DNA of 64,000 bases from Terriglobales bacterium (GCA_035543515.1 DATKJS010000124.1:8968-72967), one strand, 5' to 3'; counted from the stretch's first letter, positions 18,045 through 24,730 are shown. Notes: generated from the sequence alone by a model not told the origin. Numbers and translations: made by a program.

Positions 18045-20192
18045 CTAGTCCCGGGCCAGGGCCGCGTCCAGGACCTCGGCGGTGTGGCGGACCTCGGTCG
18101 CCCGGCCGCTCCTCCGGCACCCGCCCCTGATCTGGAGGAGGCAGCCGGGGCAATCGAGGGCCACGACCTCGGCCCCCGAAGCGGCGACGGCCTCGAGCTT
18201 CTCGGCCAGGAGCGCCTCGGCCACTTCGGGGTGGTCGACGGAGTAGGCGCCGGCGAAGCCGCAGCAGCCGGCGGAGCCGGCCATCTCGACCAGGCCGGTC
18301 CCGATGGCCATTCGGAGGAGATCCAGCGAATCCTCGGAGGCCTTGAGAGCGTGCCGGTGATGGCAGGAATCGTGGTAGGCAACGCGGGGCGCCGGGCGCC
18401 CTTCGGGCAGGAGCCGGCGCAGGGCTTCCCGTTCGCGCCTGGCCAGGAACTGGCTGAGGGTCACGACCCGGCCGGCGAAGGCCCGGATGCCCTCCCCGGC
18501 GCCGTCCTCCGCCTCCGGCCGCGCCTTCGCCCCGAGCCGCCCAAGGATCAGGTCCGGCCCGGCCCGGGCCAGCATGGTCGTGCAGGTCGGGCAGAGGGTG
18601 ATGACCGGGCCCTCGGCCGGCATCCGCTTGAGGACATGGCGGAAGGCTCGCCGAGCCGCCGCCGCGTGGCCCGAGTTCCAGGGCGGGAAGCCGCAGCAGC
18701 CCGTCGGGCCGAGGACGACATCGTAGCCGAGCCGGGACAGCACCCGGAGCGCGGCCAGGCCGACACGCGGATAAACGTGCTGGACGAGGCAGCCCGGGAA
18801 GAGCGTCACGGGGCCCTTGACGGGCGCCGCCACCTTGGCGAGCTTCCTCTTCGCCCTGCGGAAGAGCGTCGACAGGGGCCTCGGCGCGGGCGCGGGCAGG
18901 GCCCGGAACCGGTCATAGCGGGACATCCAGGACGGCAGGCTCCGCGCGTAGCCCTTCTTCTGGATGAAGGGCCGGGCCGCCCGCCCGGCCATGAAGGCGC
19001 CTCGCTCGAGCGCCGGGTGTCCCATGACGCCGTCGAGGGCAAGTCGCTTCCAGACGGTCTTGCCGGTCTCGCGGGCGAGCCTTTCCTTGAGGGCCGCGAT
19101 GAGGTCGCCGATGGGGATCTTCGTCGAGCAGACGGTGTCGCAGCGGTGGCAGCCCAGGCAAAGCTCCGCCAGCTCCTTCGATGCCTCCAGGCCGTGGATC
19201 CAGGCCGTGAGGAGGCTGCCGATGCCGCCCATGTAGACGTGGGAGAACGCGCCGCCGCCGACGACCTGGTAGGCGGGGCAGACGTTGAGGCAGGCCGAGC
19301 ACTTGATGCAGCGCAGGACGTCGCGGAACTTGGCGTCGGCCCGGAGCTCGGAGCGGTGGTTGTCGAGGAGGATGATGTACTGCGGGCCGCGGTGCGGTCC
19401 GGCGATGAACGACACGTAGCTCGAGATGGGCTGCCCCGTGGCGTTCTTGGTCAGGATCTTGAGCAGGAGCAGGGCGTCGGCCGTATCGGGCAGGACCTTC
19501 TCCGTGCTGGCGAGGACGATGTGAACGGGGGGAACCGTGGACACGAGCCGGCCGTTGCCCTCGTTCGTCACGATCATGACGGCGCCGGTCTCGGCGATGA
19601 GGGCGTTCGCGCCGGTCAGCCCGGCCGGAGCGGCCAGGATTTCCCGCCGCAGCTCCTCCCGGGCGACGCGGACCAGGGCCGGGATGTCGTCTGGGACCTC
19701 GCGGCCCAGATGGCCGGCGAAAATCCGGGCGACGCCCTGGCGCGTCAGGTGGATGGCGGGCATGACCATGTGGGTGGGCGCCTCGGCCGCGATCTGGACG
19801 ATCCACTCGCCGAGGTCGGTCTCCCGCGGCTCGACGCCGCGGCCGGCGAGGAAGACGTTGAGGCGCGTTTCCTCGCTGACCATGGACTTGCTCTTGACGA
19901 CCGTCTTAGCGCCGTGCCTCTTCAGGATGTCGAGGATGAGCCGGTTCGCCTCGTCCCCGTCCGCGGCCCGCAGGACGCGGCTGCCGTGGCCCTCCGCCCG
20001 CTCCGTGAAGCGAGCCAGGAGGGCGTCCTGCTTGGCGATGGCGTCGTCCTTGATCTCGGCCAGCGTCTCACGCAGGGCCTCGAAATCGAGGCCTCTGAAG
20101 CAGGCTTCCCTCTTCGCCGCCCAGCCCTCGTAGAAGGCCTGGAGGGTCGCCTTGAGCCTGGGGTCAGGGGCCTGGACCTTCATGGCCGCCAT
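18045..20192 (-). CDS. lutBA: LutB-LutA fusion (DUF162 plus Fe-S lactate-utilisation protein fused to a CCG-domain protein)
   Basis: The real start is MAAMKVQ at 20192; the 1076-aa track ORF carries a ~360-aa spurious N-terminal extension. The LutB part contains CIKCSACLNVCP and CLGCHRCDTVC ferredoxin motifs. The LutA part contains CCGFPPWNSG and CCGFAGAYS. Confidence 0.8.
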   Translation of the reverse strand: MAAMKVQAPDPRLKATLQAFYEGWAAKREACFRGLDFEALRETLAEIKDDAIAKQDALLARFTERAEGHGSRVLRAADGDEANRLILDILKRHGAKTVVKSKSMVSEETRLNVFLAGRGVEPRETDLGEWIVQIAAEAPTHMVMPAIHLTRQGVARIFAGHLGREVPDDIPALVRVAREELRREILAAPAGLTGANALIAETGAVMIVTNEGNGRLVSTVPPVHIVLASTEKVLPDTADALLLLKILTKNATGQPISSYVSFIAGPHRGPQYIILLDNHRSELRADAKFRDVLRCIKCSACLNVCPAYQVVGGGAFSHVYMGGIGSLLTAWIHGLEASKELAELCLGCHRCDTVCSTKIPIGDLIAALKERLARETGKTVWKRLALDGVMGHPALERGAFMAGRAARPFIQKKGYARSLPSWMSRYDRFRALPAPAPRPLSTLFRRAKRKLAKVAAPVKGPVTLFPGCLVQHVYPRVGLAALRVLSRLGYDVVLGPTGCCGFPPWNSGHAAAARRAFRHVLKRMPAEGPVITLCPTCTTMLARAGPDLILGRLGAKARPEAEDGAGEGIRAFAGRVVTLSQFLARREREALRRLLPEGRPAPRVAYHDSCHHRHALKASEDSLDLLRMAIGTGLVEMAGSAGCCGFAGAYSVDHPEVAEALLAEKLEAVAASGAEVVALDCPGCLLQIRGGCRRSGRATEVRHTAEVLDAALARD

Positions 20193-20734
20193 CCCCCCTT
20201 TCCGCCGACGAGGACGACGACCAGCCGGGCCGGTCCCTGGACCCCGATCGTCAGCTGGTTCTCGATGTCGGCCGTCCGGCTGGGCCCCGTGACGAGCGAG
20301 ACCTGGGGGCCGGGGATGCCCGGCCGCGCGAGGTGGTCGGCCATCGTCCCGGCCAGGGACTGGAGGTCGGGTACGATCCGGCCGCAATCGAGGAGGCAGA
20401 CGCAGAGCGGCGGGAGTGTCCAGGCCAGCTTTTCCTCGTCCCCCTCGTCCAGCCGGACCAGCGTGCCGGTCTCGGCGGCGCCGAAGTCCGCGCTGACCAG
20501 GGCCGCGTCGGCCGCCGCGATGGCCTCGACGTCCTCGGGCAGCGCGACGGCGAGGCCGGACGCCACTGCCTCGGCCTGGACCGGGCGCGAGGCGAGCGCC
20601 CGCGCGACCTTCGCCTCCGCGAAAAGCCGGGCTGCGACGGCGAGGGCCGCGGCGAGGTCCGGGGCCCGGACGACCTCGGCCCCGGCGGCGACGGCGCCAG
20701 CGGCGAAGCGCCCGACAAGATCCCGGCTCACCAT
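20180..20734 (-). CDS. lutC: LutC/YkgG-family (LUD domain) lactate-utilisation protein
   Basis: 184 aa, with ...SADFGAAETGTLVRLDEG... typical of the family. It overlaps the lutBA start by 13 nt. Confidence 0.75.
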   Translation of the reverse strand: MVSRDLVGRFAAGAVAAGAEVVRAPDLAAALAVAARLFAEAKVARALASRPVQAEAVASGLAVALPEDVEAIAAADAALVSADFGAAETGTLVRLDEGDEEKLAWTLPPLCVCLLDCGRIVPDLQSLAGTMADHLARPGIPGPQVSLVTGPSRTADIENQLTIGVQGPARLVVVLVGGKGGWRP

Positions 20735-24420: not shown

Positions 24421-24454
24421 CCGTCCGGGAGGAAAGGAAAAAGCCCCTATGGAC

Positions 24455-24730
24455 TTATCCGCCGACGAGAAAGGGGAAGACGGCGAGGGTGTCGCCCTCG
24501 GCGAGCGCCGTGTCGAGGCCCTGGCGGGAGTTGATGTGGACGCCGTTGACCATGACCACGAGATGGGGCTTGAGGCCGCCGCCCTCGAAGACCTCCGTCT
24601 TCCGCGCCGGCGTGTCGCAGAGGAGCTCGAGGGCGTCGCGGACGGTCCGTCCACGGCCGAGGTCGACCTCCTTCTCCCTTCCGCCGAAGAGGTCCCGGAA
24701 ATGGGCGAAGAACTTAGCCTTGATCGTCAT
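24455..24730 (-). CDS. moaD: MoaD/ThiS-family sulfur-carrier protein (C-terminal Gly-Gly)
   Basis: 91 aa ending ...VFPFLVGG, with a beta-grasp-like sequence. It lies upstream of the AOR operon. Confidence 0.7.
   Translation of the reverse strand: MTIKAKFFAHFRDLFGGREKEVDLGRGRTVRDALELLCDTPARKTEVFEGGGLKPHLVVMVNGVHINSRQGLDTALAEGDTLAVFPFLVGG

Follow-up and report, generated by a model that had tools for sequence, protein, structure and literature searches.

An aldehyde:ferredoxin oxidoreductase paired with a tandem class II aldolase, and a candidate route from deoxy-sugar lactaldehyde to lactate and pyruvate

A stretch of bacterial DNA of 64,000 nucleotides (nt) (GCA_035543515.1 DATKJS010000124.1:8968-72967, Terriglobales bacterium), hereafter the window, carries at positions 18045-24730 a gene string in which an aldehyde:ferredoxin oxidoreductase (AOR) is encoded together with a tandem class II aldolase, the lactate-oxidation (Lut) proteins and a MoaD-like protein. 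Among related loci, the conserved unit is the pair formed by the AOR and the tandem aldolase, which is near-obligate, while the four-gene operon is not the unit and the Lut genes are optional. At the level of comparative genomics, it is likely that the aldolase, the AOR and the Lut enzymes make up a route from L-lactaldehyde through L-lactate to pyruvate.

The window has a GC content of about 0.67, and near-identical proteins carry Candidatus Aminicenantes source names, by which the organism belongs to that group. Four open reading frames (ORFs) were found on the minus strand at the expected coordinates, with start/stop overlaps throughout, which confirms from the sequence the arrangement described in the first-pass annotation: aor (22047..23903), encoding a tungsten/molybdenum-pyranopterin AOR of 618 residues; the tandem class II aldolase gene (20728..22050, 440 residues); a lutC-like gene for a LUD-domain small subunit (20180..20734, 184 residues); and a LutB-LutA fusion gene (18045..20192, 715 residues), which corresponds to the large subunit of an LdhH-type L-lactate dehydrogenase. 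Pfam and NCBIfam profiles gave the same identities as had been proposed: AFOR_N and AFOR_C in the AOR, Aldolase_II in two stretches of the aldolase, LUD_dom (82.5 bits) in the LutC-like protein, and LUD_dom, a Fer4 dicluster and two CCG domains in the fusion. As read from the sequence, the AOR and aldolase genes overlap by 4 nt (ATGA), with the Shine-Dalgarno-like run GGGAGGGG on the 5' side of the junction, and the aldolase and LutC genes overlap by 7 nt (ATGGTGA). The overlap between the LutC and LdhH-type genes is 13 nt, or 4 nt with the second ATG (20183) as the start of the fusion.

Pairing and properties of the AOR and the tandem aldolase

The neighbourhoods of relatives were surveyed in two sets of loci. 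For the close set, a single genome of each species was scanned, and 146 genomes contained a relative; the best 80 loci, with an aldolase identity of at least 60%, were used, and they were mostly from Aminicenantes or Saccharicenans. The distant set came from a metagenome scan seeded with distant members, and comprised 78 loci with a GC content of 0.36-0.71 and an aldolase 24-44% identical to that of the window. ORFs were called with a filter on GC at the third codon position. Pairing was counted over loci with at least 2 kb of upstream sequence (66 close loci after dereplication, and 52 distant loci), using tblastn mapping for the close set.

The AOR gene lies immediately upstream of the aldolase gene in 63 of the 66 close loci and in all 52 distant loci, that is, in 115/118 overall. 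One close locus (L009) has the AOR immediately downstream of the aldolase, and the two genes adjoin in 116/118 loci; within the close set, an aldolase without an AOR occurs only in L086 and in the L005-7 lineage. A 4-nt overlap between the two genes recurs in two further distant cases, L096 and L097. In addition, how similar each AOR is to that of the window correlates, in percent identity, with how similar its aldolase is (r = 0.99 over 120 loci), indicating that the two genes travel and diverge as a unit. When the ORFs of the distant loci were clustered, only three families were widely shared, namely the aldolase, the AOR and an FGGY kinase, and no other recurrent aldolase family was found in the clustered loci.

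Some loci depart from the common picture in content or in label. In L005-L007 (the lineage of P0125), the aldolase keeps all catalytic residues and is followed by an Nramp transporter gene, and the AOR, MoaD-like and Lut genes are missing. Aldolases 63-75% identical to the Aminicenantes protein were also found in records assigned to other phyla: L093 (CP070772.1, labelled Phycisphaerales), L086 (a Planctomycetota metagenome-assembled genome), L060 (Candidatus Desulfaltia) and several loci labelled 'uncultured Eubacteriales'. Mis-binning or mislabelling might account for these records, as might horizontal transfer of the module.

The AOR of the window scored far above the Pfam cut-offs in both parts (AFOR_N 233.6 bits, AFOR_C 381 bits). 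Its closest relatives in the PDB are the canonical AORs 9mqx, 1aor and 9g7j (453-461 bits), together with 8c0z, whereas the scores against other subfamilies were 257 bits for FOR, 167 for WOR5, 157 for BamB and 40 for the GAPOR model. Judged by bit scores, the protein is predicted to be of the canonical, broad-specificity AOR type and not an FOR, GAPOR, WOR5 or BamB, which sets aside membership in the formaldehyde- or glyceraldehyde-specific subfamilies, an outcome that would have spoken for a different role. Comparison with the Pyrococcus furiosus enzyme pairs GACYLCPIGCQ with kpCyaCpigCgr and GVCRF with GlClF, with EGPEYE and GACH conserved; the alignment thus takes in CxxCxxxC, the distal Cys, EGPEYE and the CH motif. 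As in 1aor, the four cysteines would be the ligands of the [4Fe-4S] cluster, and the Glu and His would be active-site residues. Tungsten rather than molybdenum is the predicted metal, and ferredoxin the predicted acceptor. No gene for an additional redox subunit was seen adjoining the window AOR.

The aldolase matches Pfam Aldolase_II in its two stretches with 98.6 bits. In the N-terminal domain, H31-S-G-N, S81/E83, H101/H103 and H172 are invariant or nearly so across 21 family members, and in an alignment these residues correspond to those of the phosphate site, to the catalytic Glu and to the three Zn-binding His in the fuculose-1-phosphate aldolase of Thermus thermophilus. The C-terminal domain has MHCY instead of HxH and GGG instead of GHG, the Asn of HSGN is gone and two of the three His are lost, while it has conserved motifs of its own (PIDAEG and HHxSS). 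It is, by these replacements, a predicted degenerate pseudo-enzyme domain following an N-domain with a complete active site. An AlphaFold2 model of the protein gave a confident two-domain fold (pLDDT 91.4, pTM 0.92), for which the top Foldseek matches were the FucA structures 2fk5, 2flf and 2opi, each covering one domain with a TM-score to target of 0.75-0.85, followed by RhaD, YgbL and 5-deoxyribulose-1-phosphate aldolase (6btg/6btd). With the FucA-type site of the N-domain intact and FucA as the best structural match, the protein does not appear to be a non-aldolase of the same fold, which had been named as an outcome against the proposed role. NCBIfam also gave weak matches to MtnB and to ribulose-1-phosphate aldolase. 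The family is small, with 39 clusters (50% identity, E<1e-30) among 1.84 billion representatives.

Sugar and lactate genes around the pair, and the proposed route

Genes of rhamnose and fucose catabolism recur next to the pair in relatives. In the close set, a divergent gene for the isomerase RhaA adjoins the aldolase in L065, L070, L073, L082 and L090, and L070 encodes a GH78-type rhamnosidase and a kinase as well. The order in L093 is AOR, aldolase, kinase and then a non-homologous isomerase of RhaI type (TIGR02635, 529 bits). A fucosidase gene adjoins the aldolase in L008, fucosidase, aldolase and AOR follow one another in L009, and in L012 FucI and an FGGY kinase are encoded 5 kb from the pair. 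Among the distant loci, RhaA stands beside the pair in five (L110, L126, L132, L155, L175) and FucI occurs in eight, and GH106 rhamnosidases and fucosidases were also found. Examples of gene orders are AOR, aldolase, FucI, kinase (L128, L141) and AOR, aldolase, kinase, FucI, Pta (L135). The adjacent FGGY kinases have rhamnulokinase as their best match (TIGR02627, 331-504 bits, cut-off 528). Overall, at least one sugar gene of rhamnose or fucose type is present in 24 of the 42 distant loci that are 8 kb or longer. The proteins of the window's clade are 60-66% identical to those that adjoin RhaA.

The window contains the complete set of Lut domains, with LutC (LUD), LutB (LUD and two 4Fe-4S) and LutA (two CCG), the last two being fused. 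The fusion aligns end to end with the NCBIfam model quin_L_LdhH, which describes the large subunit of a quinone-type L-lactate dehydrogenase (703.6 bits), and from their domains the LutC-like protein and the fusion would together convert L-lactate to pyruvate. Of the 63 close loci, 18 have Lut genes in the flank that was fetched, with 13 of them adjoining the pair directly; among the 78 distant loci, the number is 5. Their arrangement varies: the fused LdhH-type gene and lutC lie downstream of the pair in the window's clade; in L009, split LutB and LutA genes are encoded on the opposite strand, as is Lut in L099; RhaA is divergent from AOR, aldolase, LutA, LutB in L110 and L126, the LutB of L126 scoring above the TIGR00273 cut-off; and the order in L169 is AOR, aldolase, FucI, LutA, LutB, an unassigned gene and a kinase. 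Lut has been recruited independently, in at least four different arrangements. The neighbourhood survey that the first-pass annotation had called for gave its reading strong support: it brought out the AOR-aldolase pair and its rhamnose/fucose operons, with Lut genes added in a minority of loci.

Other genes recur near the pair. In the Saccharicenans loci L038-L050 and L063, a hybrid-cluster protein (Prismane/HCP, 581 bits) is encoded between a LutC-like gene and the LdhH-type gene, downstream of the pair, and the same loci have an alkaline-phosphatase-like gene on the opposite strand. URO-D-like (MtaA/CmuA-type) genes stand beside the pair or RhaA in L009, L065, L070, L081, L082, L089, L093, L094, L140, L155 and L175, and are often accompanied by genes for a B12-binding protein, for methyltransferases (MTTB-like or Pterin_bind) and for the corrinoid activator RACo. 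Speculatively, this group could serve the corrinoid-dependent demethylation of O-methylated deoxy-sugars.

The cleavage of rhamnulose-1-phosphate and that of fuculose-1-phosphate share L-lactaldehyde as the aldehyde product. The locus would then represent the lower branch of an anaerobic pathway for 6-deoxy-hexoses (L-rhamnose or L-fucose). In a first step, the N-domain of the aldolase would cleave L-rhamnulose-1-phosphate and/or L-fuculose-1-phosphate into dihydroxyacetone phosphate (DHAP) together with L-lactaldehyde, and the degenerate C-domain would stand in for the partner subunit of the usual homo-oligomer. In a second step, the translationally coupled AOR would oxidize the toxic L-lactaldehyde to L-lactate with reduction of ferredoxin, replacing the NAD-dependent AldA or RhaW. 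In the Aminicenantes clade of the window, LutC and the LdhH-type fusion would add a third step from L-lactate to pyruvate. This route, which had been put forward from the window by itself, gains support from the gene context in relatives, since the sole recurring aldolase, a near-invariable AOR and recurrently recruited genes for the oxidation of L-lactate, the product expected of the AOR, come together in rhamnose and fucose operons. We infer from the same context the substrates, the direction of the reactions and the acceptor of the LdhH-type enzyme, and the isomerase and kinase would be encoded elsewhere in the genomes of the window's clade. On an Aminicenantes chromosome (CP070825.1, not linked to a pair-bearing genome), RhaB, RhaA and a URO-D-like gene occur with no aldolase within 10 kb, a context that is only suggestive of an isomerase and kinase encoded apart from the aldolase.

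Several observations weigh against this assignment. No rhamnose or fucose isomerase, kinase or glycosidase was found in the window, where almost all genes are annotated, and the closest relatives likewise have none within 64 kb; around 40% of the longer distant loci carry no recognizable sugar gene. The aldolase is below every equivalog cut-off, its best score being 119.5 bits with PRK08660 'aldolase' (cut-off 203), and the FucA model NF005984 gives it 16.8 bits (cut-off 264). The LdhH-type protein is also below the cut-offs for quin_L_LdhH (703.6 against 800) and for LutB in TIGR00273 (337.9 against 444.8); since it nevertheless aligns over its full length, it would be a divergent LdhH member or a paralogue. 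Moreover, since most loci have no Lut genes, the lactate may simply be excreted, and since AORs are of broad specificity, adjacency cannot fix one substrate.

With the AOR and aldolase acting as proposed, the LutC-LdhH genes might still be an independent, general lactate module that is a neighbour by chance. The counts are in line with this, Lut being absent in 45/63 close and 73/78 distant loci. In many Aminicenantes loci the aldolase is directly followed by the HD-GYP and TilS genes, and in Saccharicenans the LutC-like and LdhH-type genes are separated from the pair by the HCP gene and others. However, the start/stop overlaps from the aldolase through LutC to LdhH imply co-translation, Lut adjoins the pair in no fewer than four arrangements and lineages that are unrelated, and the coupling of lld genes to rhamnose regulons has been documented (PMC3870299). 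A chance neighbourhood is thus considered improbable.

The substrate could also differ. In the window's clade, the pair might process another 1-phosphoketose, the AOR oxidizing the aldehyde released from it and the Lut genes being unrelated neighbours. Candidates are 5-deoxyribulose-1-phosphate or methylthioribulose-1-phosphate in a DHAP shunt, which would yield acetaldehyde or methylthioacetaldehyde, and D-ribulose-1-phosphate, which would yield glycolaldehyde. The missing rhamnose and fucose genes in the window, the 5-deoxyribulose-1-phosphate aldolase among the structural neighbours, the weak matches to MtnB and ribulose-1-phosphate aldolase and the many aldehydes accepted by AORs all agree with such a substrate. 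On the other hand, no genes for MtnA, MtnK, MtnP or a nucleosidase were seen in the annotated neighbourhoods, where the only recurrent genes are those for rhamnose and fucose, and the identity of 60-66% links the window's clade to the proteins encoded beside RhaA. Furthermore, only from lactaldehyde would the AOR yield L-lactate, the substrate of Lut. Taken together, another ketose phosphate is judged to be quite improbable.

A reductive, biosynthetic direction, with the AOR reducing lactate at the expense of reduced ferredoxin and the aldolase condensing lactaldehyde with DHAP to deoxy-ketose phosphates, is hardly credible: class II aldolase reactions and, in principle, those of AORs are reversible, but no result of the analysis speaks for this direction, the genes around the pair point to catabolism (glycosidases, isomerases, kinases and the Pta of L135), lactate is consumed by the Lut enzymes, and the reduction of acids by AOR is known to be thermodynamically very unfavourable.

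The oxidation of deoxy-sugar lactaldehyde by the AOR, if true, would have several consequences. AOR-family tungstoenzymes are widespread in anaerobes and have mostly been given vague roles in 'aldehyde detoxification'; bacterial AORs would gain a defined substrate, L-lactaldehyde, and a defined pathway, the anaerobic catabolism of deoxy-sugars, in many uncultured lineages. Anaerobes otherwise usually discard the aldehyde as 1,2-propanediol or form microcompartments. Here, the C3 aldehyde half of the deoxy-sugar would be oxidized anaerobically, and established energetics suggest that low-potential reduced ferredoxin would be obtained; with Lut, pyruvate would be gained too, and hence acetate and ATP. 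The previously unannotated family of tandem class II aldolases would likely be the missing RhaD/FucA of these genomes, and deoxy-sugar fermentation is predicted to be tungsten- (or molybdenum-) dependent. The route would also bear on the flow of carbon out of the cell-wall polysaccharides of plants and algae where these are degraded in peat, sediments and aquifers, habitats of Aminicenantes and of other carriers of the pair.

Leader, upstream genes and the rest of the window

On the 5' side of aor lies a non-coding leader of 550 nt (23904..24454, minus strand), in which no plausible ORF was found that has a GC content at third codon positions as high as is usual for genes here. It is unusually long compared with the roughly 90 nt in L001. 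Neither a match to a sigma-70-like promoter nor any Rfam family, including the Moco and Tuco riboswitches, was found in the leader (gathering or E<=1 thresholds), and an Rfam search of the whole window returned a tRNA only. A terminator-like hairpin with a T-rich tail (24441..24456, minus strand) comes right after the MoaD-like gene; it was called by a consensus scan that is weak, with 2 sites against 2.6 expected by shuffling.

The gene upstream of the leader (24455..24730, minus strand) encodes a MoaD/ThiS-family, sulfur-carrier-like protein of 91 residues that ends in a Gly-Gly (VGG). It matched Pfam ThiS with 53 bits, and the NCBIfam models SAMP1 with 71.2 bits (cut-off 60) and moaD_arch with 62 bits (cut-off 49.5). 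The next gene encodes an NTPase_1 (THEP1-like) P-loop NTPase and is probably outside the system (24714..25256, minus strand). Its ORF spans 24714-25400, the P-loop comes after Met49, and the real start is probably this Met49, near 25256. Since a non-coding gap of 550 nt and a hairpin follow the stop of the MoaD-like gene, this gene and that of the NTPase are probably not on the aor transcript.

Both genes had been proposed to serve maturation of the tungsten cofactor, and the two parts of this claim fared differently. In most Aminicenantes loci, a tblastn match to the MoaD-like protein lies between the NTPase and AOR genes. The synteny in L005-7 is secretin, NTPase_1, aldolase, Nramp, TilS, and the AOR and MoaD-like genes are both missing. 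This joint loss with the NTPase retained ties the MoaD-like gene to the AOR, to which it is plausibly related in function, and uncouples the NTPase. The NTPase_1 protein was therefore rejected as a tungsten-cofactor factor, since its gene persists in L005-7 without the AOR and MoaD-like genes.

Beyond the NTPase gene, there is a cluster resembling those for type II secretion and type IV pili. Its secretin (25279-27408, minus strand) has TPR repeats at its N-terminus and a cohesin-like domain at its C-terminus, an architecture kept in relatives, and its neighbours encode T2SSE, T2SSF and a prepilin peptidase. On the 3' side of the string are genes for a HAMP/HD-GYP protein, a tRNA and TilS. The tRNA (16137-16212, minus strand; anticodon CAT), called as tRNA-Met, overlaps the longest TilS ORF (14686-16185) at its 5' side, so that the true start of TilS must lie downstream of the start of this ORF. 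TilS lysidinylates tRNA-Ile2(CAU), and the CAT tRNA may therefore be its own substrate. A CUT2-type ABC transporter for monosaccharides is encoded at 3974-7609 (minus strand), with a binding protein, a fused ATPase and a permease; the binding protein has its best matches with allose and ribose types, and scored 87 bits with RhaS (cut-off 342).

Comparison with known systems

The proposed pathway resembles the RhaA-RhaB-RhaD and FucI-FucK-FucA systems of Escherichia coli, in which an isomerase, a kinase and a metal-dependent class II aldolase lead to DHAP and L-lactaldehyde. The N-domain of the window aldolase keeps the catalytic and Zn-binding residues and the fold of FucA, and relatives of the pair adjoin RhaA, FucI and rhamnulokinase-like genes. 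Unlike FucA and RhaD, however, the window aldolase is a tandem protein of 440 residues with a dead second domain and no equivalog match. Also in contrast to E. coli, the proposed oxidant of lactaldehyde is a pterin/Fe-S AOR working with ferredoxin; E. coli has AldA, which depends on NAD, or the reductase FucO, which depends on NADH. In a literature search of incomplete coverage, neither the tandem aldolase family nor its near-obligate pairing with AOR was found described, and nor was an operon-encoded AOR step in deoxy-sugar catabolism.

A closer parallel is RhaEW, in which a rhamnulose-phosphate aldolase is fused to an L-lactaldehyde dehydrogenase, lldD and lldEFG belonging to RhaR rhamnose regulons (Rodionova et al. 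2013, PMC3870299). As in RhaEW systems, an aldolase is tightly coupled to the oxidation of lactaldehyde, and Lut or Lld enzymes extend the route to pyruvate. The components differ: RhaE is stated to have no homology to class II aldolases (PMC3870299), and RhaW works as an aldehyde dehydrogenase with NAD, whereas in the window the two partners are encoded by genes of their own that are coupled in translation, and the oxidant belongs to the AOR family. It is possible, although we regard it as doubtful, that the AOR binds the tandem aldolase in a complex, the dead C-domain serving to dock the enzymes or as a channel, so that the toxic L-lactaldehyde would pass directly from the aldolase site to the tungsten site; if true, such a complex would parallel, in a ferredoxin-linked form, both the RhaEW fusion and the microcompartments that sequester lactaldehyde.

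The AOR shares its two-domain architecture and cofactor ligands with the AOR of P. furiosus (1aor) and with WOR1 of Eubacterium limosum. Those two enzymes are regarded as general aldehyde scavengers, in contrast to the role proposed for the window AOR. To our knowledge, neither has been reported as an obligate partner of an aldolase or as a member of a sugar operon. For the tungsten enzyme WOR1, lactaldehyde is among the best substrates in vitro, and the enzyme is described as electron-bifurcating, using both NAD and ferredoxin (PMC11725836). In addition, the detoxification of lactaldehyde by AORs was suggested for rhamnose degraders without microcompartments in a study of metagenome-assembled genomes (PMC9324843).

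Finally, in a verrucomicrobium, a gene for rhamnulokinase has been reported as part of a LutABC operon (PMC11596606). The Lut proteins of the window resemble LutABC/LldEFG and the Desulfovibrio-type LldGH (LdhH/LdhL) in having a LUD small subunit and a LutB-LutA fusion that aligns with LdhH over its full length. In Desulfovibrio, the ldh genes are found with those for lactate permease, por, pta and ack. Unlike LldGH, the fusion in the window lies not with such genes but in an overlapping string with the AOR and the aldolase.

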